This document shows positions 4,755 through 58,100 of a stretch of DNA of 64,000 bases, in pieces. The notes below the pieces were generated by a model. It had not been told where the DNA came from. It saw nothing but the letters and a program-made list of their open reading frames with translations, and did not search any database. The stretch comes from Takakia lepidozioides (lineage: Eukaryota; Plantae; Bryophyta), in the NCBI GenBank assembly GCA_030704615.1, contig CM060731.1, forward strand, positions 47,306,001-47,370,000, read 5' to 3'. Both the position numbers and the translations under genes were made by a program. How positions within the stretch are numbered: position 1 is the stretch's first letter; the number at the start of each line of letters is the position of its first letter.

Positions 4755-4832
4755 TCCTCTCTGATTTTGAATATTGATTATAACTCTTGTATGATGCATC
4801 GTAATGTTCGTAATGTGCGGTTTGTTGTGCAG

Positions 4833-5790: not shown

Positions 5791-5799
5791 ATAGAGCCT

Positions 5800-9485: not shown

Positions 9486-9499
9486 GTGTGAAAAGAAGG

Positions 9500-13890: not shown

Positions 13891-13892
13891 CA

Positions 13893-14330: not shown

Positions 14331-14479
14331 AGTTGTGACAAATGAGTTGTAAGCACCATAGAGTCGTATCTGCCAGTCGTGGTGCTCACTGTTGACGTGG
14401 CAACGGGGACGCCTAATCATAGTCATTGATAAGACCGCAGTAAATGACTGCAAATCCATGTCAGTTTCACGACAGGGTC

Positions 14480-14700
14480 TTCATGACTTATATACGACTT
14501 CTGCGGATTAACCCCAGAACAACACGTGGAGAATACCGGGCATGACACGGTGAGGAGAGGGGGTCTTCCAAGACTGGCATGTATGACTTCCGCAGATTAA
14601 CCCCATGACAACACGTGGAGAATATGGGACATGACACGTGGCATGACAATATGGAGATGGAGGTTCTTTCGTGACTGGCATGTATGACTTCGGACGTTTA
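14480..14700. repeat. ~90-bp degenerate tandem repeat (2-3 copies)
   Basis: gactt..gcggattaacccc..acaacacgtggagaata...catgacacg repeated. Confidence 0.6.
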
Positions 14701-14710
14701 ATCCCAGGTC

Positions 14711-18012: not shown

Positions 18013-18111
18013 CACCACAGGGGCAGCCCTTCTTGTGTCTCGACCCCCCACCCTCAAGGCAAAGGGCCGCGACATACCATGTATTAATTATGATGAGGCC
18101 GGCTTGGAATG

Positions 18112-18549
18112 GACTGCTAGACAATGTACATACATTTCAAATCCTAACTATGACTAAGCTATGTTGTAGGGCACCGCCGCTCTGGGTGAACCGGCCTGCA
18201 AACATGGAAGGGGGACATCTAGAATAAAGGTGGCATATTAAGTAGAGATAGAGGCATTTGCATTGGAATCTTGTGGACATGGTATGTTGTCTTGAGGCAT
18301 AATGTTATCATAACATAATAGTAATGAGACATAAGAAGGTGGATGGAAGCCTAGTACAATACAATGGTAGACTAATCAAGAAGGTGAGTATCTAGAGGTT
18401 TTTTATTCTTGAAATGGAAGATAAGAAGGAAGAAAATAGACGCAACACGATGGACGTGAATAGATTGATTTTTGTGCAAGGTGGTTGACAGCATGAGATG
18501 TACGACACTATACAAAAACAGTCTAGATGATAAAAGCATGGAGACAATT
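18112..18549 (-). repeat. ~440-bp repeat, inverted copy of 13893-14330
   Basis: Direct visual alignment. Confidence 0.85.
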
Positions 18550-36600: not shown

Positions 36601-37134
36601 AGTTCATGATCGTACATCACAAGAGCACTGCCTACTATCCCCAAGGAAATGGCCAGGCTGAATCTACCAACAAGATATTATACACCATCTTAACCAAGAT
36701 AGTAAATGCCAATCGTACAGATTGGGACACCAAAATGAACACAGCGCTATGGGCATTCAGGACATCATACAAGGTGACCACAAAACATACACCATTTCAA
36801 CTGGCCCTATGGAGCAGAGGCACTATTACCCATTGAATGCATGATACCCACACTACGAACCGGAACTCATGAACGATGGGGTTTAGAGGAATCTCTACGA
36901 GTCAGGGAACATGAGTTATTTCATCTGGAAGAAGTTCGGGCAGACGCTGCAGATAACATGGCACGAATTCAAGAACAGCGAAGAAAAAGAATATCCGAAG
37001 GGAAAGAAAAATCTTTCCAGGACGGGGAAGTTATTTTATGGTTACCAAAAATCAAGAAGATCAAACTGGGAGGAAAATTGAAAATGCCATGGATGGGACC
37101 ATTTCAAATCAAAAGGGTACATGACAATGGAACA
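29802..37134 (+). mobile_element. Non-chromovirus Ty3/Gypsy element (Athila/Tat/Phygy-like); degenerate, 3' end lost at a MULE insertion
   Basis: gag 31922-33125 with Zn knuckles; protease IDGGSGVN (~33490); RT (LRVCVDYRKLN, MPFGLCNAPATFQ, FLDD); RNase H 35260-35630; integrase ([29 protein letters not shown]). Confidence 0.93.
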
Positions 37135-40100
37135 AGGTTTACTATTTCATGAGCAAAAACCATGAGCCATGAGCCATGAGCCGCATGAGCGGTGAGCCGA
37201 AGTCTAAGACACGCGGATTTCATGAGCGGACTCCTCCAAATTTGGAAATGTGGTAGATTACAAAAGTATTAAAATAATAGTTTTTTATTTGACCTTGCCG
37301 TTTTTGGAAGTTCCAGATCCTGTAATGCGGCGAAGATATGTCGTCAATAACAACTCCGCTCATGGTTTTTTAGATCCGCTCATGGAAATGTGTGACCGTG
37401 CAACGAGAAATCCAGTATACCACGACAAAAGGACGTCGCATACTGGCCTGTATAGAGTATTCCGCGGTTTTACATGCCTTAACATTGGAATGAAGCTGAC
37501 CCTTCTGCCGCGATTGAACCAATAGAGTCTGCACCAATAGAGTCTGCAATACTTCACAATTCTGTCATCTTCGGGTATTCGGCGGGAAAGGTTTGCGACT
37601 CAACTGGGAAATGCGGTGCCGCATTAGGGTTCGCACGTGCGAAATTTCTGGGGGGTTTGGTGTTGGCGACGGTCGGCTCCCTAAAGGCTGGGTGCGACTA
37701 TCTTGCTATGATGAAGGCCGCATCTACCAGTACCTATGATGTTACTTGGAAATGCGGCGCCGCATTTCCTTGCCGGGGGTCAAATGAGGAAAACAAAGTT
37801 TGGGAGAGCAGAAAAACAGGAACCCTCCAACAAACAAAAATACAAGCACGTGGAAACATAAGTGAATAACATAGTATTATCTTAGTTCAAGCAAAACAAG
37901 TTACTGGTAGGCAAGACATAAGTCGGACCTTTCTGTGGCCAGAGTCAGAGGTACTTGCAGCAGTACAGTTCTACTATAACTGAAACTCCGAAAAGGATGG
38001 GCGTACCATTGTGTGGGGACCGCAAGCCAAGCTCACTAGTCCCCTGGATCCATATTCAGAAGAGTGCGCACCTCTTGGGGGCTCAACCCTGGTGCATGTA
38101 TGAAGTGATGAGTTGTGGAATTACACCAGAGTCTCTTTAGGTACACGTAGTACAGATGCTTGCAAGGGCAGTATGATGCCCCCTTGTTCACCATCATCTG
38201 GAAGTCGGTGCAATTGCAGGTGGGTAATTCTGAAATGGTGATGGTGTACACCTCATTGCAAACAGCTGAGCATGTCGTGGCCATCTGATACACACGCCTG
38301 AAGCCTGGTAGGTGCACTTCTGTCGAGCTCTGGATTGTACAGTTCATCTGAAGTGCATTCCCTATCCTTGTCTCGTTCACTTTTGAGGGAGGTCGCCGCC
38401 TCTTCGGTTTCCCCCAACGGTGCGTAGGATGCTTAGAGCTGTCGCGTCCCATTGTTCTTGCTCTCACAGAGGTCGGTGGTGGAGGCTGTGGAAGCAGAAA
38501 TGGTTGTCTGGGGACGTCAGTGCGCTGCACCATCCGAAAGCTTGCGGCAGTAAGGGCGTCGGCCTCAACCTGACTCAGATCGCAGCCTGGTTCCACCGGC
38601 CACACCGGGGGAGCCTCTGGCATTGTTTGTATGCCGTACTTGGGCTTTCCATACACGCAAGTCATAATGTCGTGCCTGCAAAACCAAAACTGGGTGGTTG
38701 TCGCCTCCGCAAACTTTGCATGGACAAATCTTCCTATAAAAGTAGGAGCAGGGACAGCCCCATCTGGATTCCTCCTTATCATCTCTAAACAAAGTTGCCA
38801 TGTATCCACTCGAATTGCGGAACACCTGCCTTGAAACGCCAGCTTTGTGCGAGCAATTCTCCACTGTGACGCAGACACAGTCGTCTCCACAATGGCTTGG
38901 CCATACTGCATAACAACGGGCGGAATCTGGGGCAAGCGAGCGGTGGGAATTTCTTGCACGGAATCCCCGCTTGAAGGCGATGGCGATCTGGAAACTCTTG
39001 GGCTTCCACTGCTGGAAGACACATTGTGCGGCAACATGACGGGACCTCGAGGTGCTGTCAGAATGTTCCTATCGGATCTCCAAGAATCCTCTTCGCACCC
39101 AGGTTCCTCTTCAATCCTCCACCTCACAGGGCGAGTACGGACGTCCCCCTCTAGGTGTTCACCTCTGCGGGTGTAGAGGCGTCCCTTTGATCTTCTCTCG
39201 ATATGATGTCGCCCATTTCAGTGGATTCTTGGACCTCGAAGCTGTTCGTACCAACAATTCCTCCTTGTCCGGCCCAAAGCCCCATTGTTTCCCGCTCAGG
39301 AACTTGTAGTACGTGGCTTGCTACATGATTGCTCTGTCGATGTCCTCCATTGTGGCCATCACTACGTCCACCACATGTGCGGCAGAAGACGCTCGCTAGG
39401 AGGAGTGGACTGATTCTGCCATATTCGTGTTCGGCATGTCCGTGTCGGAATCCAAGCACCGCTCCTACAAGGACAGAAACAATGGTGAGGGACCAATGGA
39501 AAGGTCCGTAATAGAACAACAATTGCACGAAAATGACAGCGTCATACCTCCCGCATGTACTGTCCGAACTGTCGATACCGGAAATGCCACCACCCCAACC
39601 AGCTGTGCAAGGCTCCCAGATTGGTTGTCTCTACTGCACCTGACGTGTTCCACCAAGCCTCGATGATAGCAAACTTAACCTCCGCGTCATCAAATGTGGG
39701 TGCATCCTTCCACGCCATACAAATGACACGGTGTTTAGCCTGGAATGAGCTAGCAACAAATCCGGTAGTGTAGTGAGATAGACTCTGCATCAAATGGAAT
39801 CCACAAGATCTCTCTTTCCCCTCCATTGGAACATTGGGGTCCTCACCATACACATGCCGCACCGCTGCCCAGTTGGCGTGAGCGTTGTCTGCCATGAATC
39901 CCCTGAAATTGGGCTCTGGCAAACCCGCCCTTGCCATCTACTCGTTTATGCCCTCCCACAGATGCATCTCCGACTGTGTGTCCTCCCCTTTCATCTCGCA
40001 GATTGCAATCGTCATGAACCTCTTGGAGTGATAGTCATAAACATGCGCACCCATAGTCACCCACTGATGGTTTGTAATTTGCTTGATGTGGTCAAACATC

Positions 40101-41497
40101 ACCCAAGCATTCGACAAGTTTCCAGTTGTCATGCGAGTGACCAAGTCGATTCCACTCCCAAACCCACACGTCGACATTTTAAAAATGTAACAACGATCGG
40201 ATTCGCTGCCTTGCCCTGGAAACCTGTTACCTTGGATGTAGTCATATCTAGTCCTTCGTTTCACCTCCAGGATTGAGTGCATGGCCGACCCCCGGCCGAA
40301 CTCCTGCTTGCAAGATACGATGTGATTCCGCACATTCGGACTACAAACGTGCGAGACGGACTCCAACAGGTCAAGCATCTCCTCTTCGTTCAAGGGCACT
40401 CGGTCTGAACCATCTTTAGACATGATTTTGCCAAGAGCAATCTTGTGGGCTGCCTTCAGCTGAATCTGCTTTGGTCTGGCTCCGGGGCTCAATTTCACCT
40501 CCTCTTTTATGATGTCGTGTGCTTCCTGCACAACCTCCCGCATGTTGCCTCTCGCCAAGGGGTGGCAGTGGACCCCAACGTGTATGCAAGCTCTAGTCAA
40601 GTTCGGGAGCAAATGGATTACGTAATATTGCTTGGCTCTGTACATGGACATGCACGTCGGTGGTTCTTTGCAATGTGCGCACTTGAAAGTACCTGCAGGA
40701 GCTTGGCTGGAGACAATGAATGGATAATGGGTTGTGCAAGTCCAATCCGTCTCATTTCTCCGCCCTCGTTTGGAGAGAAAGTGGAAGCAGGCGGGATTGA
40801 GGCACCTCAACTTCCCGGCACAGAGGACGTATCGTACACGAACACCATCAGCAATTTTCGTGCTACTGGTCTTCGTCACACACCAGGGGTGTCCGTCATG
40901 CTTTCGATCCATGTCTGTTAACATCCCTGAGGCTTTGTTTGACGAAGTAACAGGTGGAAACTTGAAGATGACATTGCCATCGACTTCGGGAGGCAGATAC
41001 GTTACCTTCCTGACTGGAATTTGGCATAGTCGAGAGCAGCCAGCTTGGAGCGAGAACCATCGAGGTGATGTTGCCGTAGGAGCTACACAATGGACCGGGT
41101 TGGAGTTATGCTCGAGGGTACATGCGTGGCACCTGCAGAGACGTCCATGTCGGATTTGAACAACCGTGTGGAGGACATGGGGACCTCAATGCACTCATCT
41201 TCCTCGTCGGAAATGTCGAATACCTCCACACGAGAAGCTATGGAGGGTCTTGACGGTCCAGGTCGGGAATGATTATCGTTGCATACCTCTCTGTTGGCAG
41301 TGGCCGCCTGTCGGTTTCCCGACTCCTTTGTGGATGGTGTCGGAAGCGACTGATTCGGAAAGGGAATGGACAAGATGGTGTCTGATGGGGTAAGTGCCAC
41401 TCGATTCCGCAACCTCCGTCGTTACCTAGCATGACAATGGTCTCGTCAACCTGTCCAGGAACATCCTTCCTTTCTTCTTCCAAATAAACTGTGCCCG
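37135..41497 (-). mobile_element. Mutator-like element: GCM/WRKY-like Zn domain + DDE transposase + SWIM; pseudogenised; 5' part continues at 53513-~53790
   Basis: DGHPW...CAGKLRCLNPAC...CAHC...HVGVHCHP; VMFDH (D1); FMADNAHAN (D2); CGFH; TNMAESVHS (E, ~39429-39403); SWIM CNCTDF...CKH. Terminus AGGTTTACTATTTCATGAGC is shared with the 16412 copy. Confidence 0.85.
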
Positions 41498-41850
41498 TGT
41501 CAAGTTAAATAAGCACAGTGTGAAACTAACTAGAATAAAGCTAGTTATTTGTATTTAACACTTGGATTTAGGTCAAGTGTTTAATCAGGTGTCAAGTTTA
41601 GTTTGACACCTAAACCGTCTTATCTTCACGAGAGCGTCAGTCGCGCAGCTCATCTCTCTCGAGTTGAGCCTGCACGACCGAGCTCCTTCATCGTTTAGAA
41701 CTGAGTGTACTTATGATGGGAGGATAGGTTGTTGTGGGGTGGAGTCCCCATAGCTTGGGGTGCCCCTGACTCGACTATTATCTGAAAGAGTGATGATGAG
41801 ATGGATTTCATGTTTCTTGTGTTAAGAGTGTGTTCTTAGTTTTCTTATCA
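41498..41850 (+). repeat. LTR segment B1 (most of U3, R, U5)
   Basis: Near-identical to 53078-53426. Confidence 0.95.
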
Positions 41851-41864
41851 CTCGAGAGAGATGA
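41851..41864 (+). promoter_or_regulatory. Self-priming primer-binding site
   Basis: CTCGAGAGAGATGA is the exact reverse complement of TCATCTCTCTCGAG at 41650-41663; there is no TGG tRNA PBS. Confidence 0.75.
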
Positions 41865-42914
41865 CCTCTTACATGTGAGTGCAAGGTAGGAGTTGAGGGT
41901 TAGCACTTGTATGATTACCTGTGTGTAAGTAGTGCTTAGTTTAAGAAGCTTAAAAAAAAAAAAAAAAACCATGCAGGTTTCGATCATCTTTGGTTTCTGG
42001 GTGGTGGGGGAGGAGATGGGAGCGGAACGAGCTCCGTTGACTGTGCAGCGATGAGTCTCTCAACTCGAAAGCTTTGAGACGGTTGCGGGTGTCCTCATTG
42101 CGAATGACTGCATCTCCTCCAAACAGAACAAACTTGTCCTTGTTAGTGAACCCCCGCTCGTGGTTGCCTTGTGCAGAGCGTGTCCGGCTGCAACGCTGTC
42201 TGATTGCACAAACTTGTGTAGCTCCTGCTCCTCTACTCCAGTACACCACGGCCTTGTGGCTGAACACCTTGGTACCCAGGGCTGTCTTTGGCTGTGTTCC
42301 AAGCCTAGCTTTCACCCACTTTGGTATTTCACCTACACCTGCAGAACTGCTGGCTCCAACAGAGTTCTGACTGTCCAAAGCGATATTGAGTCCCTCAACG
42401 CCAACTACAGCAGTTTGTTGTCTACTGCTAATGCCTGACTCCCAATATGCAATCAATTCGTCCAACTGTTCTCCACTCAAATCAGTCTGAGTTCCTTGGG
42501 AAACATAAATCTTGTCCCCTTATATGCACAGGCTAAGAGACGAGACCTGCCCTTCAATTACGTCCTCATTTCCCCCAGCCATACAAGGAGGACATCCACA
42601 GATTTGTCTCTCATATAGACCAGAACAGGTTCTAGAAACAAAATTGTGGATCTTTCACGGCACACTCACACTCTAAAAATTCCATAGATTTTTAGCAGAG
42701 TCCCAAAAACAAAAACCAGGTCTAGATAGGTAGATTTCCCCTTTTTGTAGGTCCCTGCGCAAGTTTTGGGTCAAACGGCCTTGGTAGGCCAAAGTTATGG
42801 CCAAACAGGCTCTATCTAATTTAAATTAGATCAAAGAACGAATTTCTTTTAATTTTTCACACCCAACATGTTCTCGCCATTAAAAACTGTTCCCACATTT
42901 TTTGCGATTCAGTA

Positions 42915-43154
42915 CAGGTTCCCTAAGAATTCCTTGGACTCCTTCTTCAAACCTTCATAATAGCTTTCCAAGGCTAAAGCAGGAGAAGCCAATGTCAACA
43001 CAGGGGCCACGACCGCAGCCATCACAGCCCGTCGCTGCAAGGCTTCAGCGTCTGTTTTTGCTTGGCACCTCACAGGAGCCATCTTGAAAGAGACAGCGGC
43101 ATGGTGAGACGGCACAGCCACACAAGTTCCCACCAACGAAGAAGCGGATGCCAT
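42915..43154 (-). pseudogene. Captured host fragment: bipartite chloroplast transit peptide with twin-arginine (Tat) thylakoid-lumen signal
   Basis: MASASSLVG...VRCQA...LQRRAVMAAVVAPVLTLASPALA|LESYYEG. Confidence 0.6.
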
Positions 43155-43999
43155 AATGCTTGAGGAAACTGAGTGACGCCAGTGGTTGAACTCTTCCGTG
43201 GTTGACAATTGCAGGTTGCATGTGCTGCGGGCTTACCAAATAGATATGGCCAGTTCTGTAGCAGACAAGTTCGCTGCAGAATTTTGAGAGCTCAAACGCG
43301 AAGAAAAGTTGTGATTTTGGATGGCGAGAGAGTGAAGAAGTCGCAATGATTTGTACGCATGCGCTCCGAAAGCCAGAGAGATGCTAGGGTTATTGCAGGT
43401 GATTAAGGCCATGCCGGTGTGTTTGGTTTTTTCTGTCGGAGCCACATTGCTAAAGCGAACTTGGAGGATGTTGCCTTGGCCCATGATGGAGTGCAGCGCC
43501 TCTGTAGTGGCAGGCTGTGAGTGGAGGGAGTTGAGGTGTTTGAGAACCAGTGTCAACGCGTCCCTTTCAGGTACGATCTCGTGAGCTGTGGCGGCAATCC
43601 CGATCGGCTGGTCCGTAGAATCTTGAGTTGTGGTCGGATCAGCATATTTTCAACGCGAACTCCCTGCACTTGCATTCTTTGTTTGGTGTCTTCAGATGCA
43701 ATGTAGATGAAGCAGAACTTAGAATCAGCCTTGGCATTGTGTACATGGAGGATTTCAAACTCGTCTCCATGAAATACGTTTCCATGAAATACGTTTCCAT
43801 GATCAGGCGCTAGTGACAGCTACTTGACATTGTGATATCGACCACGGAGGGAGCAGATTCGTTGCCAGAGAGTGTTTTCTTGTGTACACGGGGATACTGT
43901 ATCCTGCTACAGGAATCCACCAGAAGGAAAGCTACACGCAGCAATGGCCTCTACTCACACAATGCTATGTAAATGTTTCTCAAGGAGAAAAGAAGAGAA

Positions 44000-44620
44000 G
44001 CAAGGTTGGGCGGCAGTTGTTACAGGAATCTGGCCTGCTTGGAGGACATGAGACTTCAAATTCGGAAGGAGCTTCCTCATGATATTTCGCGATGGAGAAA
44101 GCCATCAGGTGAAGTTGTTGACAGTACTGATGCTGCCGTAACAGAGCCTGCAGCTCCTGCTTTTGAACTCGAAGTAGTTTCTGCTGCAGCACCTGGAGCT
44201 GGCCGAGACTGCTGCAGTTGCGGAGCCTACTCCAGTGGTGGATGCAGTAACTCCTGCTCCCGAGGCCGATGTATCTGTTGTGATACCAGAGACAGAAACC
44301 AAAGAAGTTGTGCCCACTGAGACTGAGACGAAGGAGGCGGTCTCTGCCAAGACAGGGCTTTCCAAGGAGACTGTAGTTGAAGAGCGAGATGAGAGTATCC
44401 CTGAAGATGTAGCTATGTGGGGCGTCCCTTTGCTCCACACCAAGGGGGATGAGCGAACTCGGTGCAAATCACAGAGCTGAAGAACTTCCCATTTTTCTCC
44501 CCTACCAAGAAAGAACTGAGGATAGCTACAAATGAGGCTCGGGTGTTGTTGCAGGATAATTACCCGGAACTGGTTGTGAAAAAGGTTTTCACCAACGTCC
44601 CGTTTCATCAATTGCAAGCT
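44000..44620 (+). pseudogene. Captured patellin (Sec14/CRAL-TRIO) fragment with internal deletion
   Basis: Acidic repeats, then VAMWGVPLL..KGDERT fused to KELRIATNEARVLLQDNYPELVVKKVFTNVP. Confidence 0.8.
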
Positions 44621-45282
44621 TCCCTGCCGTTGTTGTTGTGCGAGCTCATATCAGACCCTACCTTTGTTTTCTTTAGTGTTCAGTGAGCGGGAGATAGAGG
44701 AGTATTGCTTTGTCTCTACTTGGCAGAAAGAGGAGGAGGGTTGGTTAGAGCGAGCTACTGTAGCTTGGGACAAGGTTAGTGGCAGGTTTCTGGACATAGA
44801 TATACCTACCTACACCTTACCATCATGCAGAGCGAGGCACTTTGAGAGAAGTCTGGCAGTTGATAACATAGATCAGGATTAGATCTTGCTTGGTCGGGCT
44901 TCTATTCTTCCCCTCCATCTCTGTACTATTTTCATTACCTTGTACTTGTAGTTGCCAAAGCCTCTCTTGGTGGAGGCCAGTCAGTCCGGGGTTTTGGGCT
45001 GGGATATTCTGCAGGTCAGCACTGCAGATGGATTTTGGTGTGGGGGTGTTGATGTTTTGATTTCTTGTGTTTGGATCCCCCCCAACACCTGCATGCTTGA
45101 CTGTGCGCCATGTTGGTTTTGTGTGGGCACTTGCTTTCATAGGGATTAGGCCGGATTTGATCACCGGTCAATCCTAGAGTATGCTGTCGGTGGTGAGGCT
45201 GGAGTGATGACTAGCAAGACCACCAGTGTTTCTTCTATGGTGAGACTGGGTTGATGACCAGCCAACCTTAGGAGTTCTTGCG

Positions 45283-47000
45283 GTGGATGCAGGTGCAGGT
45301 GCCCTGAGCCACTGGGATATGACCCTTAAACTGCAACAAGTACCTACCCGTGTCACTATTAGAATTAGTAATAGAGCCTTAAAGTGTCACGTGGGGGAGG
45401 TGCACATTGTGAGTGTCATCACGGAGTTACCCAGGGGTTCTGAGGGGAGCACGGCTACAGGCAGTAGCAGTGAGAGTGGGTTCACCAGACGAGGTGTTCA
45501 TTTCAGACCACCTTCACCTCCACCTTCAACTAGTGCAGAGTCAGACATAGACTCGGAGGCTTCATCAACAGGTGTGCAGTTTCATTCGCCATTGTTGTGG
45601 GACGACATGGAGGAGATGTATGGAGCTACCAAGGGCCTCGTAGGTACTCTGGAGCTGTGGGCACAATCGAGTTGGATGACTTTATCCAGGGTTCGACAGC
45701 TGGTGTGATTTGCAGCAGATGCGCAATCCACAGCTATTCACCCCATTCATGGCGTGGAAGGGATTGTTCCAGCATTTGGAAGGCCCGCCTATGGACGATT
45801 ACCACGAGTTCAGGCGAGGACATGAAGCAGAGATTGAGGAGTGGAGGATGTATTGGTCACCTGACTACGTCTCCATTACTCAAGGCACGACGCGACCAGT
45901 AGCTGCATCAGTACCAATATCTCCCACTGCCAGCACTAGTAGTGGAACAAGTAGTGCCGGTACTTCTGCAAGTGGTACCAGTTCAAAAGGTGCTACTACT
46001 CCTCCTGCCACGACTACAACACATGTGCCTAGATTCAACCTGGTGGTGGAGTTCTTCCAGGAGTTGTGGAGGAACTACCAAGGTGTACGGACAGAGAAGC
46101 TGCGAAGTTTGCAAGACTTCCAGCGCAAACCCAATGAGAGCCTGCGAGAGGCGTACACTCGTATGAGGCGCTTGATAAGTGTGACCCAAGGGGTTACTGA
46201 AGCTCAGGCAATCCAGTTCTGGTATGGAATTTTGGACAAGGAGCTCAGGAGAAGGGTGCGGGATGCAACCCTGTTACAAGTAGCCCACCCACATTAGCAG
46301 TGTTTTCTGCTGCTGAGCGATTGAGCTAACATAGTGGAGGAGCGAGTTGTTACCATTGGATTGGCAAAGACATGCCTGCACGAGGCGCACTGCCAGCCCA
46401 CAGGCACAATGGACGGCCCAACAAACGTGGTAAGGGGGGCAAGGTTTCCCAACCCAAGTTCCATGGAGGCTTACAGGGGACCTCAGGTGCAGAGGGCCGT
46501 GGCATCTTTTGCAGGCCAACAGCAACCAGGGGTGATATGTTGGACATGTGGAGGACCCATGTCAAGAGAGATTGCCCAGAGAGTGGCAGAAGGCCGGCAC
46601 AAGCAACAGCCTGCACAGTTGCAGTGTTGGGCATTGTGGCAAGTATGGGCATAGAGATGCCCAGTGTTATGACTTGCATCCTGAGTTGCGCCCAGGCCAG
46701 TTCCAAGGAACAATGGTGGCCGGGGGCGAGGTGGACCAGCCCAGAGAGGACGAGGTGGTCGGGCACAAGTGCAGGCCAAGGGCAAAGCTCAACAATGGCC
46801 AAGGAGCGGAGGTCCGGGTGTTGACCAAGGCATGGCCAACCTGCTTTCAGTAAGCTAGAGCAGAGGCTCGCTGCCATGGCCACAGCTCAGGCGGTACCAC
46901 GGCCCAGGCGGGATGGTCCACCTCCTGCGCCTGAGGGAGGAGATATAGGAGGCATGGGATTCATGTGCGGAGCAGCGCTAACACTAGAGCAGGTGGAGTC
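45283..47000 (+). pseudogene. gag of the DNMT-Gypsy element (frameshifted)
   Basis: LQDFQRKPNESLREAYTRM; knuckles CWTCGGPHVKRDC and CGHCGKYGHRDAQC. Confidence 0.8.
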
Positions 47001-47589
47001 TGCTGCAGCCGTGACTCGAGAGCATCACGAGTTCCTGAGCCACGAGGTGCAGAGGTGGAATTGGATCCACAGCGTGGGGGAGGCAAGCCGTCATGCGAGG
47101 CTTCCTCAGTCATTCACATTGGCGAAGACAGTGTCGACGCCATCCATGGACCATAGTTCTCCGCCCGACTGTTACCGAGGCGGATGTTACTATGCCATTG
47201 GGGAGAGCTACACGTGCAGCACTGACCACCTGCTACCAAGGCTAGTGCAGCCGGTGTGTTGTTGGGCAGCCACGTCTGTGTGTCAAGCCCCACTGTTTTC
47301 GTCAGGCAACCATGATTGCGACCGCCGGGGGTCAGAAAACCAGCTGCCAGTGTCAAACTAGCAGCACACTCTGTGAGAGTGGGGAGGTACTTTCACTTCA
47401 TCTTCTGGCGGAGTTAGTGGAAGGTTTAGTGGCAGAGGGATCCTCGATTTGAGGGTCAAGACTGCCATGCAAGCTACAGCTGCCAGTTGACGGAGCTGCC
47501 AGCTAGGTCCAGCCTTTGAGCGCGCCATGGTGACACCTGGAGTTGTCGTTGTTAGACAACCAAGATGACATTTTCACTTTGAGTGGACC

Positions 47590-47920
47590 AGCAGCAAGAT
47601 TACCAGCCACTGCGGGTCTTGTTGGACTCGGGCAGCTCACCATTGATGTTGGGCAGAGCTGCTATTGCAGGTTTGGGCCTCATGGAGGGCGGATATGGAG
47701 CCTTGTCCTTTCCAGATACAGACATCTCTGGAGGATCAAAGCAGGCTCGGGGCATGACACGGCGTGAGTTGGCATTGGACTACAGCCGGATCATCCTGTA
47801 GATGGCTCAGTGATGTGAGCCAAGCCATTGTGACAGACCGCGTCTCTTACGATGTCCTCATTGGTGGGGCAGTGTTATTTCCCATGGGCTTCACTCTGGA
47901 CTTTTTGGAGGAGTCCAGCA
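47590..47920 (+). pseudogene. Aspartic protease domain
   Basis: LRVLLDSGSSPLML ... SYDVLIG. Confidence 0.85.
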
Positions 47921-48335
47921 TCCTACAGGCCTGGATGGCCGTCATGGGATGGTCGTCGTGACACAGCTCCCTGTGACATTCATTGGGGGTATTGCGGCTG
48001 CCCAACAGGGCAAGATGCCAACACTAGCCGCCTTTACACTGCAGTTAGTTGGCCTGAGAGTTTGCTGGAAGGCAATGCCCATGCAGAGGATGTGCCACCT
48101 CCAGCAGAGTAGGATGAACATGCATGGTATGGCGGAGTTGCCTGCCATGGTTGCTCACACTCCATTGTGGGGTACGAGCAAGGATTTGCAGCAGGTTGCT
48201 GATCGACGGGTGCAACAAGCCTGGGTAGAGACCTTTTGTACCGTCAGGACAGGAGGAAGTGCGGGTATTGCACCAGGACCACCTCAGTTATCACCATTGG
48301 ATATACCACCCTATTGTGTGGCAGTATCCGGATGA

Positions 48336-49290
48336 GGCATTTGCCTTCTGGACTTGTGTGGCGGGATCAGCACTGGATTGGCTGCTGTGGGCTACAGGTA
48401 GGTGTGCGGGTAAGGCGTTACCTGTATGTGGAGAGGGATAGAGACCTGCACGACGCGTCTCATGCGCCATGTTGCTCAGTTGGTACAGCATTACCCTGCT
48501 TTGTTGCCAGTGTCTGCAGTTCGTGGATACCAACAAGCCTTGCCAACAGACATTCGTTGCTGGGGGCGCCAGATTTGGAGCAGGTTGGCTCCATTGATCT
48601 GGTAGTGGCAGGCTGGCCCTGCCAAGGGCATTCATCAGCCGGCATGGCAGGGATTGCGAGACTCTAGGACGGGTCTGTTTTGGGAGATGGTGCGGATTTT
48701 GCGCCACTTGCAGCTTCACCAGCGTATCGCCAGCATACATTTTGGAGAATGTGCCACTGATGGGCGATTCTCGGGCCAGGGTGATGGCCAGTGTTGCATC
48801 AAGTCCGGTCGTGGCTTGGGTCAGCAGTGCTGTTGGATGCAGCACAGTGGGATCACGGGCTCATCGTCCACGGCTATGGTGGACTAACTTGATGCCACCC
48901 CACTGCTCAAGCGTGCATTTGAGGGGTACAGCGGCCAACACACCTCACAGTGGACAAACATTTTGGGACCAGGGAGGCAGTCTCACGTGTGAGACACGAT
49001 GACCATTCGCCTTTGGCAGTGGTCAACAGGGTGGGTCAACCACGAGCAGCATTACCTACATTGCTCAGCTTCCCAGGATTCCATGCGTTCGGGATGGTGG
49101 ACCTACCTGGCCTCATGTGGGATGCTTCAGTTGCGCAGTTTAGTGGACCTAATGCCAACGAGCAAGAGCGGGCTATGGGGTTTTTCCACTGGGACCACGG
49201 CGGTGCCTTCTCTTTCTGAGGCATCACGTCGTCAGGTGTTGGGGCCAAGCAATGGATCTCAATTGCTTGACCTGGATTATCAGCTTGGCT
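48336..49290 (+). pseudogene. C5-cytosine DNA methyltransferase domain, DNMT3-like (frameshifted)
   Basis: Motif I LLDLCGGISTG; II VRRYLYVERD; IV IDLVVAGWPCQG (48596-48628); V RTGLFWEMVRIL; VI ENV (48745-48753); VIII SRAHRPRLWWTNL; IX EQERAMGF; X SRRQVLG..MDLNCL. Confidence 0.9.
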
Positions 49291-49729
49291 ATGGCTGAGC
49301 AACGTAGAGTGCGGAGTGCACTTCCTTGACTGTCTCTCTGCCTACCGAGACGGTACAGGCAGCGAGTGGGGGCGAGCCGGTGAGGACCACGGGGTGTAGA
49401 CATCCATGGCACACGTGGGAGGTGCTCGAGGTTCAGAGGGAGTTGGTAGCCAAGGCAGCTGTGATGGATAAGGTTGGGGATTCTTCTCGGGATGATGAGG
49501 TCCTCAAGGATGAGATGATGGGGCAGGATGAGGCCTTGTCATTGACTGAGCAGGCAGCGATTACTGCTCAAGAGGTTGCGGCATAGCAACCATGGGACGC
49601 GTCTTCTACCTCTAAGCCCACTGGACTTAAGGTTGCAGTTACGGAGGACAATTGGGAGCCTGACATTGGACCCATTGTCACCGGAGGAGAGAGACGACGT
49701 ATACGGTGGTTCCTGAGGGCTTACAGGAA

Positions 49730-51080
49730 TTGCTTTGCCTTCAGTTGAAGGACTTAGGAGCACTGAAGGGTCAAGAGATTCGCATTGAATTGGCTACTGA
49801 CATGCCAATCTTTCGGAGACCCTATAGATACAGTGACATGGAGAGGTCCTTGATTTAGATGAGAACTCAGGACCTTTGGGAGGCTGGTTTGGTGGAGCTA
49901 TCTAGGGGAGAGTATGCTTCAGCCACAGTGATGCCAGCCAAGATGGATGTCTATGGCAATTGGACGGAGAGACGTATGTGCGGTGATTACCGGCCTGTAA
50001 ATCGTCAGACCAAGTCCGATAGGTATGCCATGCCGACACCAGAGGAGATCTTTGATGCCATTGGGCATGCCAAGGCTTTAGCACGTTGGATTTACGATCC
50101 GGATATCACCAGTTGCCGATCACGGAGGCGGATAAGCAAAGACGGCTTCTGGGGGATCAATGAGCACGGGAAGGATTGCTATACCAGTGGCGGTTCTTAC
50201 CATTTGGGCTTAAGAACGCTCCGGCAGAATTTCAGAGAGTCATGGACAGGATTCTAGCAGGGGTGGAGTTTGCTCGGTGCTACATAGATGACATCATCAT
50301 TTTTAGTGCTACGGTGGAAGAGCATGAGAGACACCTTCAGGGGTATTTGAGCGCTTGAGGGCGCACGGATTGAAGTTACATCCGGGAAAGTGCAAGTTTT
50401 TCCACAACCAAATTGAGTATCTGGGTCACATGATATATCCTGGAGGATTGGGGGTACAGCAGACTAAGGTAGAGTCCATTGCACAAGTTCCACGCCCCAC
50501 GGATGTGAGCCGGGTTCGAGCTTTCATGGGTTAGCAAACCTATTATAGACGGTTTGTTAAGGGATTTAGTGCCATTGCAAAGGCTCTAACCAAGCTAACC
50601 AAGGTGGACCAGGAGTGACAGTGGGGAGATGAGCAAGAACAAGCTTTTCAAGAGCTCAAGGCGAGGTTGACCTCGGCGCCCATCTTGAGACGACCTATCA
50701 GGGGGCGTCCTTTTCAGCTGCATACAGATTGAAGCATGCTGGGGCTTGGAACGGTGCTCATACAGGTGGATGATGAGGGAAGAGAGTTCGTAGTGGCTTA
50801 TGCTAGCCGCTCGAACAACGTTGCAGAGTCTAAGTATAGCTCATATGATGGAGAATGCTTAGCTGCAGTGTGGGCCGTGGGATACTTCAGGTGCTATCTA
50901 TACGGCAATCTCTTCACCTTTGTCCGGATCACCAACCACTCAAGTGGTTGATGGAGTCAGACAAGCTTCGGGAAGCTTGCACGGTTGGCACTCATCCTTC
51001 AAGAGTATGACTTTTCAGGTGGTGCATCGACCGTGGTTTTGGCCAATCGCAATGCAGATGGGTTGAGTCGCAATCCATGC
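49730..51080 (+). pseudogene. Reverse transcriptase and RNase H
   Basis: RMCGDYRPVN, LPFGLKNAPAEFQ, CYIDDIIIFS; FQLHTD, VVAYASR, ECLAAVWAV. Confidence 0.95.
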
Positions 51081-51450
51081 ACGAGCCAGCATGATGACAC
51101 TGGAGCTCGTGGCAGGTGAGACGGACGAGGAATGGTGCCCGGATGTCATGCAATCTTATTTCTGTGTATCTTGGCAGCGAAGGCCAGGTTGGACCTGCAA
51201 ACCAGGGATGAACTGTAGATACAAGTGTCTGAGGACCCCCTGAGGCCAACAATGAGGCAGTCGCCAAAATATACATGGGATTCAGTTGTGTTGGATTAAC
51301 CTCCGCACTGAGCACTGCAGCCACCGGTGACTGCCACGGAGAGGATCGGATCCTACAACGAGCCAAGAGGTTTCAGTGGGAGGGAACCCTGCTCAAGTGG
51401 GAGGGGACACACCTGCTCCAAGTGTGGGAGGATGGTTGTTTGAGTGAGGA

Positions 51451-52729
51451 TTGTGCCTCACCCAACACAGCGGGACACGGTTACGCGGCATGCCCATGAG
51501 GAGTTGGGGCATTTTGGGGTGCGACGCACTCATAGTCTACTGTAGCGGGCAGTATTGGTGGCGTGGTATGCACACAGAGGTGCAACAATTTGTGGCTAGG
51601 TGCATGGTGTGTGACAGGGTGAGTGCTTCATTCAACGCCCCTACTCCACAATTGCACCCTTCTGATCATGGGATTGGGCTACAGTGGAGTCTTGACTTCG
51701 CAGCAGGGCCGTTGTCACTGACCATGCGCCACAACAAGTACGTGTTGGTGATGGTGGAGCACTTCTCCAAGTGGATTGAATTGGTTCCATTGCCTGATAA
51801 GGCTAGTGAGGAGCTGCGTATGCATTTGGATTGTGTGCTTAGCCGATTCGGTGCTCCAGCTGAGGTACTCACGGACAAGGGAGAGAGTTCTTGGGGGAGT
51901 TTCAGGCTTTGTGTGACAAGGCCTTGATAGACCACCGCACCACTTCTCGGGATCATCCTGAGGCCGATGGCTTGGAAGAGAGAGTTGTTCACACAGTAAA
52001 GAGGGATGTGCGCAAGTATGGCTTGCAGAAGGGACACCTAGGAGATTGGGACCTTCAGTACCCTGGTTAGCCATGGGCTACAGGTTCAGCAAGCAAGCAT
52101 CATTGCCTCCTTTTCACCATACTTTCTTCTCTTTGGCCGAGAGCCGGATTTGCCTACATCCATTCGCAGGGAAGCTGCTACAGTTCTTAACCTTGACGAT
52201 CCGGACGTGTGGGCACGTGCATGTGAGCAGCGTGCAGAGTTGTTCAAGAAAGTTATGCCCATGGCTTCGAGAACTTGCCATTGCACAACACCGTGATACG
52301 TTGAGGTATGCTACCATACGTGGTGGGGGCTATCGTTCTGGGGCTCGGAGATTCAACCCTGGTGACTATATCTATCTGCAGCAGACTGCTCCTACAACCT
52401 TGGATGTGACTGCATGACGTGTTATTTTGAGGGTTCGAGAGGTCTTGCCCTCAGGCGTCGTGGTCTTGGAGGGTTGGGAGGGCATAACTTGGAAGGACCA
52501 TGTGCGTAATTGTGCGTCATGTCACCTTCCGAATGTCGATGGCAGGATTGACCCAAACCTGGCAGTGGTATCTGCAAGTTTGAGGTGCATGTTGTGTGGG
52601 TCTGCTAAAGGGGCAGCCACCATGTTGGTGTGTGATCGATGCTCTAGAGGTTAGCATACGGGATGCCTGACTCCACCTCTTGAGATGGTTCCGGATGGGG
52701 ATTGGTTATGTCCAGAATGCATTGGATAG
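51451..52729 (+). pseudogene. DDE integrase with C-terminal PHD finger (52586-52720)
   Basis: HEELGH..YWWRGM..CMVC; WSLDF; EHFSKWIE; VLTD; HPEADG; CMLC...LVCDRC...*HTGCLTPPL..VPDGDWLCPEC. Confidence 0.9.
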
Positions 52730-52979
52730 TGGGAGTGGATACAACCATGGGAGGCTAACAAGAAATGCAAGGCCAAGCTACTAGGAGACCTTGAACACAC
52801 GGATCCTGGCTCAAGTTCACAGATTGCAAGACGGCGACTAACGATGGGGCTACTCTTATACCCGGCCTCTTGGTCTACAGAGTTTGAGTACAACAAGGCC
52901 AGTGATAGTAGAGGACTTAGTACGGCTGTGGCTATTACATCTTGTAGCTATCTGGAGTTAGGGGACCTATCCACCAGCT

Positions 52980-53512
52980 AGGGGGGCGATTGTGGCAGAC
53001 TACTTTATTGTGCATATATGTGTGGTGTGGTTTGGACAGCGATGTAGTTGTGTAGCGATACGTATGCGCACGACAGCTGTCAAGTTAAATAAGCACAATA
53101 TGAAACTAACTAGAATAAAGCTAGTATTGTATTAACACTTGGATTTAGGTCAAGTGTTAAATCAGGTGTCAAGTTTAGTTTGACACCTGAACCGTCTTAT
53201 CTTCACGAGAGCGTTAGTCGCGCAGCTCATCTCTCTCGAGTTGAGCCTGCACGACCGAGCTCCTTCATCTTTTAGAACTGAGTGTACTTATGATGGGATG
53301 ATAGGTTGTTGTGGGGTGGAGTCCCCATAGCTTGGGGTGCCCCTGGCTCGACTATATCTGAAAGAGTGATGATGAGATGGATTTCATGTTTCTTGTGTTA
53401 AGAGTGTGTTCTTAGTTTTCTTATCATTGTGGCAGACGACTTTATTGTGCATATATGTGTGGTGTGGTTGGGACAACGATGTAGTTGTGTAGCGATACGT
53501 ATGCGCACGACA
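52980..53512 (+). repeat. PPT, complete 3' LTR (A1 52991-53075, gc, B2 53078-53426), then t and A2 (53428-53512)
   Basis: AGGGGGG-cgat precedes TGTGG; A1 and A2 are near-identical 85-bp copies. Confidence 0.92.
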
Positions 53513-53790
53513 CCCGGTTTGAGCTTGAATTTGAAACAAAGGTAAGTTTCAGTCACTCTGCAAAGTCCTCCCTCGTTTGGGATCCAGGCTCTCCTAAGTT
53601 GCGGAGGACAGCAAACTATAGCGTAGGAATTCGGAGCCATCGAACACCGCATGAAGTCCCGTACTCATATGATTAGTTGGCTGTGTGACGAGATGGACAA
53701 AGACTTGGTCAGATGGCCCAAAGAAATAAATAGCGTCTCTTGATGCATTTTTGCTTCTATGTGTTTGTTCGTAACACTTCACAGTTTGGG
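53513..53790 (-). mobile_element. 5' continuation of the MULE interrupted at 41497
   Basis: Removing the retroelement restores one frame: ...CFKFKLKPG-TVYLEEERKDVPGQ... Confidence 0.7.
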
Positions 53791-53799
53791 TTTCATGCA

Positions 53800-55010
53800 A
53801 TGGGCTTACATGGGGTTACACCTTATAAGGTTATATGAAGTGGAATCATAGACAAGTACTTGGGTACACCTTTGGGCCCTAGGGCAATGGGCTTACACTC
53901 TGGGGTTCACACATAAGTGATGGGTTACACCATGCCGGGTCTCACAACGTGGGGTTACACTTAGGGTACATACAATGGGCCTAGGGTTACATGGTGGGCC
54001 TTCCTGGCTATGTCAGGGTCACGTTGCTGAAACAGTATACTTTCGTGGCATGTAACCCCACCTCGACTATGCGCATTTTGTTTATTTTTTATTTTTTTCG
54101 CCTTGAAGTGTTTGTGCACTGAAGTTCTCAGATTTATACTACATGGGGTTACATACATGAGGGCTATGTACAATGGGGTACATACGATGGGGTCACAATA
54201 GTGTGGGGGTAACATCTGGTCGGGCTACATACTTCTTGGAGTTACAACACTCTGGGTTACACTCACTCAAGAGGGTTACGCAGTTCTAAGTTACACTGTG
54301 CACAATGTGAAGTGGGCAGGGTTGCCTATACAAGGGCTACGTGTCGTGGGATACATAAGATGGGGTGATGTAGCATCGGGGTTTATAGCGTGCACCCCAA
54401 ATTGTACAATGGGTTACATGCGATGGGGGGTGACATCAATGGGGGTACATGTGGTCGGGATGACATACTTCTTGGGGTTACACAACAACAAGTTACACTC
54501 CGGAGGGCTACACTGGTCCATAACATAGGTTTGAACGGAATAATGATTATCTATCTCATGGATTACACGTCCATGGGTTACACACAAATTGGGTTACACA
54601 TAGAGGGGTTACACATACAGGGGCTAGTGTTGGTGACTAAAGGTGCTCGACTTCAACATCTTCCCACTCTGTATTGAAGGGTCATGTAACCCCGGCAGAC
54701 TAACCCAGACCTTATAGTCACATTGTAGTCATCGACTTATAATTCTCAGAGTTACACCACTGACAGCAATATTCTATGGGGTTACATACTGGGTTACACT
54801 GTTGATAGTTACATTGCAGTTACACTTGGAGTTACACCACAATGAGTTACACTGAAGAGGTTCGACTCATCTGTGTTACACTGTGTGGAGTACCACAGAT
54901 GCAAGTTACACTAAGTAGAGCTATGTTACGTTATGAAACCCCAGACAGTGTAACCCTGCGGTGTGTGTCACCCCGGCCCATGGGTGTCCCATTGAGTGGG
55001 TTACATAGGT
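53800..55010. repeat. GGGTTACAC motif-rich region downstream of the MULE transposase
   Basis: Dozens of ggttacac/gttacat copies. Confidence 0.85.
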
Positions 55011-55188
55011 TGAATGTGGATGGAATGGCAAAGTGAATAACAACCCATGAACAAACATGTACTTCATATTAAACTTGGTGATCACAAAATAAGTGTCATT
55101 GCCAATGGACTCAATGGTCACTTACTACGGAACCGGTCTACAAAATCTACTTTCCTGGCAAGGGACATGTTGTTTCCATCATCATTTT

Positions 55189-58100
55189 TTATGAATGGAA
55201 CTGCTTGAAGAGGGTGCAACAGACCTTTGTCGATTCTAACTTGTAAAGTGACAGCCTCCCACGAACACAACGAAGCTCGGCAAGCAAATGTTTGCGCATT
55301 GTTTCACTCTCATTGCCAAGAAGCGACAGGGACTTCATCTCAGATTCAATTGATGAAACATCCAATGGCTCCTGCCGACCATGCCGGGATGATGCTGAGC
55401 ACTCCGTAGGCTCTGCTAGATTCACAAATCCTCCTCTGCATCAATATCTGGAAGTTCCGATTTCATCAACATGTGAAGACCTCCATGAATGGTCTCGAGC
55501 TTTGTGCCACAGAGCTTCACAATAAGCCCTTCCTTCAGATTTGGCTTCATCAATTGAAGAACGCGGATTTGATGTTTGCACAAGTTACCCTTCAAAGCCC
55601 ATGGACAATCGCAACAAGCCCAAGTGGTCGCAGGTGCATAGATTGTGTAGCTTCGACCAGCCGTTTGAACACTATCCACAATCGCCGGATGACCAGGAAC
55701 AGTGGGCAAATGAACATTGACATCAGGGATCTCCCTTGCAGTCCAAACAGCATTACTGATAAATTCCTCCTGTCGTACATTCCTTTTGAAGCCTTTCGAT
55801 TTCAAGTTATCTCTATACCAATAGTGGGTTAGAACAGGACCCACGAGTTCGCTGATCAGCCAATCGATTCTCCTGCCATCAAGCCTTTGCTTTCCCGAGC
55901 GTAAACGAGCCTTCAAATTTCCGTGCCAAGATTCAATTGCGGCATTAGTATCCTGACTTGCTTGGGGAATATAACGAGCCCCCGTGATCCACATGCTCAG
56001 TTTTGGGACCCATTCCATTCTGATGTAACGTAGGAAGTCACGCGCAAGCGGATAGGAATAATTCAAATCTTCCAGTCGCTCCAGCGCCCACTCTTCTGGG
56101 GTGACTCCCACACAGGCGTTAATGTCGTACATTACGTCGCCAAGCTGTTTCAAAACAGCATTGCGAGTGTATGGATCGGGCATCTTACGCCACGAATGTT
56201 TCAGCCAAGCGCGGCAAACATGCCAAAGGCATAGAAATATTGCTACGTCCCCAAACGATTCCCTGCACGCACACACATCAAATGCCACCCAATCCATCAG
56301 TGTAACTCTTGTCAGTGTAACTCTTATCAGAGGAACTCTTCGCAGTGTAACTCGTAGAAGTGTAACTCTTCAAAGTGTCACTCTTAGTAGTGTGACTCAT
56401 GTAACCCCTCGTGCATCTGGTCATGTAACTATCAGTGAAACTCACAGCAGTGTAACCCAACACATATAACCCCTCGCAGCGCTGTAACGCAATCCATGTT
56501 ACACCGTGTAACTCTCAGAGCGACCCAACCTATACAACCCTCTGCGATGCTCCCAGTGTAACTCACATGCTATAGCAGTGCAACCTAATCCATGCAGGAT
56601 TGCGGATGACACGCCGTGTAACTCCCAGTGTAACTCGCAGTGTAACCCTCTATCTACCTCATAGCAGTGTAACCCTCAGTCTAACTCACAGTAGTGTAAC
56701 CCTCGGTCTAACTCACAGCAGTGTAACCCTCCGTCCAACTCAAGGCAGTATAACCATCTGTCTAACTGATAGTATAACCCTCAGTGTAATAGACAGCACT
56801 GCAACCCAATCCATGTAACCCCTCGAGCAACTGACAGTGTAACTCCAAGTGTTACAGGCAGCAATGCACCCCCTCGTGTAACTGGCAGTTTAACTCTTAC
56901 TGTGATTCTCAGTGTAACTAGCAGCAGTGTAGCCCGATCCATGAAACCCCTCGTGCATGCAACTTGTAGTGTGACTCAGAACATTGTAACTTCTAGCCGT
57001 GTACCTGATAGCATTGATTTCTGCGTCTGCATCGTCGACAACAAAAGCATTTGGCCTCCAATCTGGTTTGCTCTGAAGAAGTCGGTCGCGAAGACGTTTC
57101 ATCCAGGGGCTCAGGTCAGTCGTTTTGTTTCTCGCTGATATAATATAAGCAACAGGTATGCCGTTGAGCCATTCGTCGAACACCATCATGGTATACATTG
57201 GGAACTGCAATGTCGCAATGGTACAAAAATGAATAAGGTGAGTGTTATAATATTGGCAACAGTTGCATGGCACTCACATTTCAGAATGCAATGAAAGGTA
57301 AAGCGTGACACGAATACCTTATTTTCGTTGGTCCCAAATGTTGCATCGCATAATACACACGGTTGTGTCCCAGGTCGATCATTTTCTGTTTTTGCCACTC
57401 CGTTTGTATTCCAATTACGAACTTCAAATCACCCGCCACTGGCGCTGTCTCTTCATGGTAGAAGAAGACGCTTTCAGGATTGCTATTGACCCACATACGT
57501 ACACTTTGTGCATCATCTGGATGTTTTTTGTAACTCTCAATCGCAAGCTTGTCGGCAATGTTTCTCACGTCGTACTCGAACAAGAAACAATCGCGACTCC
57601 ACTCCATGCCTGGCTGAGACGCACAAGCTTCCTGGAGTTGTTGAGTGTGTTGTGTCATAATCATAGCTGGAGATAGGCCACTGCGAAGACTATCGACGAT
57701 CCACTGTTTCATATCTTGGCTGAGACGAGGGGCATGCACGAATCGCGAGAAATGGGAAGAGGGGTCAGCTGAACCATGACATGGCTTTCCTTTTGCATCC
57801 ACATGTTGTTTCTGGAAGTATGTGATGATTGCCAACTCTGAATCTAGAAAACACTGGCCAACTTGAAGCTACACGTACACCCACGTTTGTATGACTCTCC
57901 GAAATCCGCTGCTTTACGTCTGATTCGCTTGACTGCTGTTTGATTATCGGAGGCTGCTATCGGTTTTTCTTTCTTCTTCACAATCGGCGGGTCCGTGCGC
58001 CTATCTATCGGGCCGTAGCAGCAATGGTACCTGCAAAAAAAGCATATAAAGCGAGAGGGTTATCGCCAGAAGACTGGGGTGGGGCTGGGAATGTTATACA

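Follow-up and report, generated by a model that had tools for sequence, protein, structure and literature searches.

A Gypsy retrotransposon lineage of Takakia lepidozioides and other green plants with a DNMT3-like cytosine methyltransferase, split repeats and a probable readthrough stop

Does the cytosine methyltransferase that lies within a Gypsy retrotransposon of the moss Takakia lepidozioides belong to that element, and if so, how would it be made, what might it modify, and how does an element with split repeats copy itself and integrate? These questions arise from a stretch of 64,000 nucleotides, hereafter the window (GenBank assembly GCA_030704615.1, contig CM060731.1, positions 47,306,001 to 47,370,000, forward strand), in which a first-pass annotation made from the letters alone had read a full DNMT3-like methyltransferase (MTase) inside the pol region of such an element. 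The explanation that fits the whole best, and that we favor with moderate confidence, is that the element belongs to an abundant Gypsy family of land plants, that its DNMT3-like MTase is made at the level of Gag and likely methylates the cDNA, and that the integrase would insert end-joined cDNA via a palindrome within the long terminal repeat (LTR).

The element spans positions 41498-53512 of the window, with gag, protease (PR), MTase, reverse transcriptase (RT), RNase H (RH), integrase (IN) and PHD finger in this order, and is flanked by a 4-bp target duplication. The succession gag-PR-RT-RNase H-DDE integrase is that of Ty3/Gypsy elements, and a primer site, a polypurine tract, TG...CA ends and a target duplication are all present. 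The element does not end in two complete LTRs bounded by the primer site and the tract; a repeat A stands before the coding region and repeats B, A and B stand behind it. This layout is found in the Takakia element and in six distinct complete loci, with the ends lying inside the LTR that reverse transcription defines. The features, from left to right, are the following.

41494..41497, plus strand: left 4-bp target-site duplication CCCG (flank comparison)
41498..41850, plus strand: repeat A1, which starts with TGTC, ends with TATCA and forms the left element end (comparison of A1 with A2)
41650..41663, plus strand: predicted transcript 5' end and self-primer (complementary to the primer-binding site that follows A1)
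41851..41864, plus strand: self-priming primer-binding site directly after A1 (14-nt perfect match)
42956..44611, no strand assigned: low-copy host-gene-like fragments in the 5' leader (bounds are depth bins)
45607..46643, plus strand: gag, broken in this assembly (PF03732, E 9e-4; 63.7% to Marchantia P0007)
47552..47993, plus strand: aspartic protease (LDSG within 47619-47633)
48336..49290, plus strand: DNMT3-like C5 cytosine methyltransferase domain (motifs I-X in canonical order)
49584..49592, plus strand: in-frame stop in UAG-CAR-YYA context, likely leaky, between MTase and RT
49913..51027, plus strand: reverse transcriptase (YIDD at 50281) and RNase H (PF00078, PF17917, PF17919; 74.6% to P0032)
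51462..52155, plus strand: DDE integrase with H2C2 zinc finger and rve core (PF17921, PF00665)
52586..52720, plus strand: C-terminal PHD finger of the integrase (by alignment; PF00628 weak here, E 0.067, and strong in relatives)
52980..52989, plus strand: polypurine tract directly before B1 (same place in 12 of 12 elements examined)
52990..53075, plus strand: repeat B1 (84 of 87 identical to B2)
53072..53081, no strand assigned: 10-bp palindrome GACA-GC-TGTC at the B1/A2 joint, putative integrase attachment site
53078..53426, plus strand: repeat A2 (341 of 349 aligned bases identical to A1, with four one-base gaps)
53427..53512, plus strand: repeat B2, which ends with GACA and forms the right element end (comparison with B1)
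53513..53516, plus strand: right 4-bp target-site duplication CCCG (flank comparison)

All of the C5-methyltransferase motifs that had been read between protease and RT are found there in canonical, unpermuted order (I at 48345, IV with PCQ at 48611, VI with ENV at 48739, VIII at 48859, IX at 49166 and X at 49227). They span 48345-49244, with the protease LDSG before them and the RT YIDD (50281) behind, and they include the catalytic Cys, Glu and Arg of a DNMT3-type C5 enzyme; the Cys in motif I of this copy is a natural variant, shared by 45 of 265 domains. A Pfam search of 64 stop-free pieces of the window gave a weak PF00145 match on the piece with motif IV (E 0.016), but 14 of the 18 relatives scanned passed the cut-off. 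In a frameshift-aware alignment, with breaks written as X, 258 of 406 residues (63.5%) were identical to those of an intact relative, P0013, at a score of 1078 compared to 37-44 for three shuffles.

The likeness to DNMT3, which the annotation had drawn from the wording of the motifs, is borne out by profile and fold searches in which relatives, rather than the joined sequence of the Takakia copy itself, served as queries. Against the PDB, a profile of ten relatives ranked DNMT3A first (E 5e-21), ahead of DRM-type enzymes (2e-10 to 2e-7) and HaeIII/HhaI (6e-8 to 1e-6), and DNMT1 was absent among the 57 matches. The AlphaFold model of relative P0006 (pLDDT 86) matched DNMT3A with a TM score of 0.82 over the target; an initial fold built from 10 sequences had a pLDDT of 58. 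By these searches, the domain resembles DNMT3 more than it does DRM, DNMT1, DNMT2 or the bacterial enzymes.

The copy in this assembly is broken. Its MTase domain (48336-49290) carries 14 frameshifts and no stops, whereas six relatives from metagenome contigs together carry 5 frameshifts and 21 stops in theirs, a difference that agrees with the earlier suspicion of assembly errors behind the single-nucleotide indels and makes such errors the likely source of most frameshifts in the Takakia copy. With 11 differences in 436 aligned bases between the members of its repeat pairs, the element seems to have inserted fairly recently. Since the RT-integrase region contains about nine stops relative to L161, the copy is dead as assembled.

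The MTase is real, DNMT3-like and family-wide rather than confined to one copy. All of the 80 metagenome loci returned (64 distinct) carry it in the order gag-PR-MTase-RT-RH-IN-PHD, judged as far as each contig extends and deletions aside. The domain is also present in 34 longer relatives, including proteins of Marchantia, Calypogeia and Sphagnum, and the annotation's reading of a DNMT3-like MTase in a land-plant Gypsy lineage is supported. Among named relatives, the order gag-PR-MTase-RT-RH-IN-PHD is found in Marchantia polymorpha, Calypogeia fissa, Sphagnum and Closterium. Of 265 domains, all have the Glu of motif VI and 263 have the catalytic Cys. Comparison of the Takakia domain with five relatives, the selection test suggested at the outset, gave a pN of 0.20-0.25 and a pS of 0.70-0.74, with the protease pN of the same copy (0.28-0.31) above that of the MTase; the resulting omega of 0.06-0.12, rough since silent sites are near saturation, indicates purifying selection.

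The lineage is also broad. The full profile search returned 538 clusters at E < 1e-30, of which the analysis covered the best 150. The lineage spans chlorophytes, Zygnematophyceae, liverworts and mosses, which places the capture of the MTase far earlier, and in a far wider range of hosts, than the 2018 paper on Klebsormidium reports. When 199 proteins were sorted by domain order, RT or RNase H preceded the MTase in 81 and the MTase was followed by integrase in 22, while 42 had protease before the MTase or RT/RNase H after it and 54 were too short. The order RT-RH-MTase-IN-PHD occurs in Scenedesmus, Hariotina, Tetradesmus and a Chrzof1 gene model; a few chlorophyte-type polyproteins (within P0040-P0294) carry a G-patch. 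In a midpoint-rooted FastTree of the 265 domains, all 50 PR-MTase types fall into one clade together with 8 unassigned domains (support 0.98), and the Takakia MTase groups with liverwort and moss elements (1.0). An MTase tree for which 12 distant enzymes of prokaryotes or viruses served as outgroup, a weak root, unites the 48 chlorophyte-type domains sampled from 182 in one clade (0.93), nested in a weakly supported PR-MTase grade. An RT tree joins the clade of the Takakia element with the chlorophyte type (1.0), its root, one other Gypsy element, being weak as well. Among the 12 outgroup enzymes tried, the viral MTases L081, L082 and L102 lie nearest to the transposon clade (1.0), and scans of IMG/VR gave distant MTases only and no member of the lineage. 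One member, L161, came from the prokaryote scan, in which all other matches had E values of 2e-13 or weaker. L161 (positions 1-9285), a fully intact element, is probably a contaminating eukaryotic contig that was binned with a cyanobacterial genome. Its two ends have 127 bases in common, which is what the collapse of a repeat would produce.

As to its function, we lean slightly toward the view that the MTase would place 5-methylcytosine on newly made cDNA, probably at CG like DNMT3 enzymes, and that the copy would thereby enter the genome already marked; this reading follows the 2018 proposal. By a similarly small margin of belief, the PHD finger may steer the choice of insertion site while the MTase marks the cDNA. 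The ratio of observed to expected CpG is 0.52 in the element and 0.57 in the whole window, with no sign of self-methylation, and neither CpG nor CHG ratios separate the element from other DNA of the window. A role away from packaged cDNA seems somewhat unlikely, be it that the MTase, after entry, acts on the chromatin of the host or at the site of insertion, or that it serves to bind DNA or to counter silencing. An excess of MTase over RT would fit such a role outside the particle, as would the replacement of Pro by Glu before the catalytic Cys in 125 of 265 domains and the assay of the Klebsormidium domain in yeast, which produced no methylation and which its authors call inconclusive (PMC5890265). 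However, the MTase is placed in the particle by its fusion to Gag-protease or, in chlorophyte-type elements, by its position between RNase H and integrase, and its catalytic residues are nearly invariant.

We then considered the repeats. Contigs of three DNA runs contain the empty-site joint of 41493 to 53513, and a loose contig end at 53513 matches the left flank of the element; the contigs mapped on the 3' repeats confirm the empty site and are too short for phasing the order of the repeats. Besides the six loci with the whole layout, five more have the B-A-B end, and B precedes A in none of 21 distinct left ends. The 4-bp duplication is exact in seven of nine cases, has one mismatch in one and is absent from one. 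Six loci end in B alone, and the two that could be tested both have the 4-bp duplication. An LTR composed of A alone was ruled out, since the duplication flanks B2. The loci L007, L032, L037 and L073 are rearranged; an inverted or internal B repeat is seen in L007/L016 at ~6340-6590, in L073/L074 at 8896-9056, in L032 at 7305-7417 and in L037 at 12813-13709, and such copies could be products of self-integration.

Two signals define the reverse-transcribed LTR. The site directly behind A1 is complementary to a segment from about halfway along A, over 14 nt in Takakia, and none of 100 control 30-mers matched over such a length; the fold z score is -3.3. Perfect matches of 9-16 nt were found in 13 of the 22 left ends tested, the other nine lacking a match of at least 9 nt, and across four families the sequence of the pair differs while its place is mostly kept. 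A tRNA primer was ruled out, as there is no TGG after A1, and Rfam gave no match at gathering score over 41400-53600. At the other end, a G-rich tract stands before B1 in all 12 elements. With the self-primer site behind A1 and the tract before B, the reverse-transcribed LTR should be B-A. Very probably, the RNA would start in A1 and prime its own copying behind A1, and the plus strand would start at the tract before B, yielding a cDNA of the form [B-A]-coding-[B-A]; neither a transcript start nor a poly(A) site or cDNA intermediate was seen. Self-primed reverse transcription has also been predicted for Tf1/Sushi and Tcn1 elements (PMC6317226).

The ends of the integrated element are the two halves of the GACA-GC-TGTC palindrome, which lies inside the B-A LTR, so that the integrase likely opens end-joined cDNA internally. 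The spacer between the halves at the B1/A2 joint is 2 nt in 12 of 12 elements and reads GC, or AC, GT or AT as deamination predicts; the same site is present in L161. It is probable that the integrase uses this palindrome rather than the ends made by RT, and that the two central bases would be removed as 3' processing. The A2/B2 joint, which would correspond to the joint of LTR end to LTR start, is blunt or has one added base in 10 of 12 elements, has lost 2 nt in one and has 20 extra nt ending in letters of the tract in another. In the RNA, B2 is out of reach of conventional priming, and the B2 of the element should therefore come from the left LTR of the cDNA. Each cycle would probably join the end of A to the start of B; for the simplest way, via a two-LTR circle, our judgment is evenly balanced. 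The integrase would then open the circle at the palindrome, trim two bases and make the 4-bp duplication in the manner of IS3, whose DDE enzyme, like that of IS911, opens two abutted ends lying 2-3 bases apart in a circle junction. IS3 and IS911 are bacterial DNA transposons, whereas in Takakia the joint falls within an LTR made by reverse transcription. As both palindromes of a plain two-LTR circle are equal, A-B-A-coding-B should arise from it too; because none of the 21 left ends has B before A, the circle model needs an asymmetry that is as yet unexplained.

This single permutation is explained more easily by a route like that of PAT and Ngaro elements, in which the RNA would run through B2 and the internal B-A joint would template the ends, or by a third template switch giving a linear concatemer that the integrase trims. 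We consider both unlikely. The A1-B1-A2-B2 layout is identical to that of PAT/Ngaro elements (PMC4157794), and most A2/B2 joints are precise, as either route would have it. In contrast, the covarying self-primer site and the tract define a B-A LTR and leave the B2 of the RNA uncopied, the 4-bp duplication, CA ends and DDE integrase are present, and imprecision occurs at two of 12 A2/B2 joints and never at B1/A2. A Pfam search of the plus-strand frames of the element found rve and H2C2 and no tyrosine recombinase.

Readthrough of a stop is known between gag and pol in murine leukaemia virus and between pol and env in SIRE1. Unlike these stops and that of tobacco mosaic virus (TMV), the stop in Takakia falls after the protease and the MTase and before RT. 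In most loci, MTase and RT share one frame in the DNA with a stop between them, which rules out a frameshift, and the Gag-PR-MTase proteins of relatives end ~75-80 residues past the MTase domain. Of 64 sequences anchored on the RT start (not de-duplicated), 43 have TAR-CAR-YY 16-23 codons before RT, with the full YYA in five of the 43, including Takakia (49584); three differ by one base, and the remaining 18 are one family without a conserved stop. The codon following CAR varies (CCA, CTA, TTA, TCA or CCC), and the largest family, with CAA-CCC, falls short of the full consensus. L161, whose 9.3-kb contig represents an independent family, has frames of 1162 and 1047 codons, both unbroken, with a single TAG-CAA-TCA separating them between MTase and RT. 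CAR YYA after UAG is the readthrough signal of TMV, with 6-10% readthrough in stable plants (PMC2754532), and there as here a leaky amber codon in one frame would set the ratio of two proteins. The conserved UAG-CAR-YY(A) stop is thus likely leaky, judging from its sequence context, and the MTase would be made at Gag level. In all likelihood, most ribosomes would stop there and a minority would read through into RT-RH-IN, so that the MTase would outnumber RT and be packaged with Gag.

The claim that the MTase lies inside pol therefore stands only by way of this likely readthrough; as encoded, the MTase ends the Gag-PR frame ahead of the conserved stop. An MTase in one open reading frame with RT and RNase H is not seen in the Takakia clade, but it is found in the family L050-L079 and in P0082. 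Since that family and the chlorophyte type have no stop, an MTase at Gag level is not required throughout the lineage. Bypass of the stop by splicing or re-initiation is quite unlikely: the largest family does have an in-frame ATG three codons past the stop, and some gene models of Marchantia and Sphagnum join MTase to RT across this stretch, but the ATG is absent from the Takakia element, L031, L058, L060 and L161, MTase and RT are in the same frame, and the six bases fit the plant viral readthrough consensus across families whose silent sites are saturated.

In this copy, the 5' leader is 3.8 kb long compared to ~1.2 kb in relatives, and within it 42956-44611 holds low-copy fragments of at least two host-like genes, which partly match contigs from a run presumed to be RNA; on the minus strand, 42909-43232 looks, judged by eye, like a chloroplast transit and lumen signal peptide. 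No terminal inverted repeat or duplication was evident around these fragments, and Pfam named none of nine leader ORFs convincingly. Summed contig depth, which is not copy number, was 481k-573k over the MTase and 475k-973k over RT and integrase in run X1, and 176-552 over the low-copy stretch, the MTase being ~1000-fold higher; run X6, from a different study, gave the same pattern. Although the low-copy leader fragments and the indel-rich sequence might suggest that the MTase came into one copy as a piece of a host gene, or that it is an artefact of assembly, that reading is refuted by the RT-like depth of the domain, by its occurrence at the same position both in the 80 related loci and in named genomes from four genera of streptophytes, and by the purifying selection acting on it. 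The annotation had itself named an MTase confined to this copy, with its own boundaries, as the finding that would undo its claim.

The rest of the window is rich in repeats. Another high-copy repeat with minus-strand ORFs (39938-41497 and 53513-57868) houses the element; one of these ORFs has a SWIM finger, and the repeat may be Mutator-like. Arrays of the GGGTTACA type lie at ~1.3-2.6, 53.8-55, 56.3-57 and 59-60.5 kb, and inverted 1.7-kb copies, 93.9% identical and 21 kb apart, at 14708-16412 and 37135-38870. A second, unrelated Gypsy element (32214-36800; gag-zinc knuckle-PR-RT-integrase), in which no MTase was seen, has an RT-RNase H ~35% identical to that of the MTase element. Broken PPR arrays (5700-12500), a gag/protease remnant with 400-bp inverted repeats (13545-18523) and a cytochrome P450 gene (19085-21888) were also noted.

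The closest described element is KnitGypsy-Dnmt3 of the alga Klebsormidium nitens, which has Gypsy domains and repeats that are "the same as a DIRS retrotransposon" (PMC5890265, Fig. 4c legend), so that split repeats, which the first-pass annotation did not mention, had already been noted in 2018. Both elements share the Gypsy domains, an unrearranged Dnmt3-like MTase under purifying selection and DIRS-like repeats, and their common descent is likely. KnitGypsy-Dnmt3 was treated as an acquisition of the K. nitens lineage (PMC5890265); ours resides in a land plant. KnitGypsy-Dnmt3 is stated to encode MTase, RT and RNase H in a single ORF, and the accessible parts of its description contain no primer site, tract, attachment palindrome or integration model (PMC5890265); the Takakia element has an in-frame stop between MTase and RT. 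No sequence labelled K. nitens was among the relatives found in our searches.

The A1-coding-B1-A2-B2 layout and a proposed circular intermediate are shared with PAT, Ngaro and VIPER elements and with SymbioDIRS-Dnmt3 (PMC4157794, PMC7192593, PMC5890265), the last being an example of split-repeat tyrosine-recombinase elements that, like the Takakia element, carry an MTase (PMC5890265). PAT and Ngaro elements use a tyrosine recombinase, in contrast to the DDE integrase with PHD finger, 4-bp duplication, self-priming site and tract of Takakia (PMC4157794, PMC7192593). Tf1/Sushi elements and the plant Tcn1 chromoviruses, the latter found in mosses and club-mosses, resemble the Takakia element in their predicted priming on their own RNA and differ in having ordinary paired LTRs and a chromodomain where Takakia has a PHD finger, an MTase and permuted repeats (PMC6317226); in the Pfam scans of relatives, no chromodomain was found at the integrase C terminus and the PHD finger was present. 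EpiLTRs/DAM-LTRs are LTR elements with methyltransferases and a chromatin-reader domain, whose DNMT is related to DNMT4 and paired with DAM and a chromodomain, unlike the DNMT3-like MTase here; the same preprint, in the portion accessible, mentions "streptophytes (Gypsy-DNMT3)" in passing (bioRxiv 10.64898/2026.05.21.726589). Our literature search found no account of the lineage in land plants or of its mechanism, a point on which subscription journals may bear. What is new here is the conserved stop between MTase and RT, the B-A LTR defined by self-primer and tract, and integrated ends that are halves of a palindrome.

Taken as one, the most detailed form of our proposal, to which we give about equal credence and doubt, is that a DDE integrase opens end-joined cDNA at a palindrome in U3, as in IS3, and so gives rise to DIRS-like repeats; that DNMT3 is supplied at Gag stoichiometry through a leaky stop; that copies arrive pre-methylated, methylation possibly marking which palindrome is cut; and that the lineage is an old Gypsy lineage spanning green plants. 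The textbook precursor of integration is a linear cDNA with attachment sites at its tips. If the proposal is true, an LTR retrotransposon integrates through an internal attachment site and an LTR-LTR joint, and no tyrosine recombinase is needed to turn ordinary LTRs into DIRS-like split repeats. Tools that require LTR pairs flanked by a duplication (PMC6317226) would likely miss such elements. With annotated members in the tractable model Marchantia polymorpha, the role of a cytosine methylase in a retrotransposon, the question raised in 2018, becomes directly testable.
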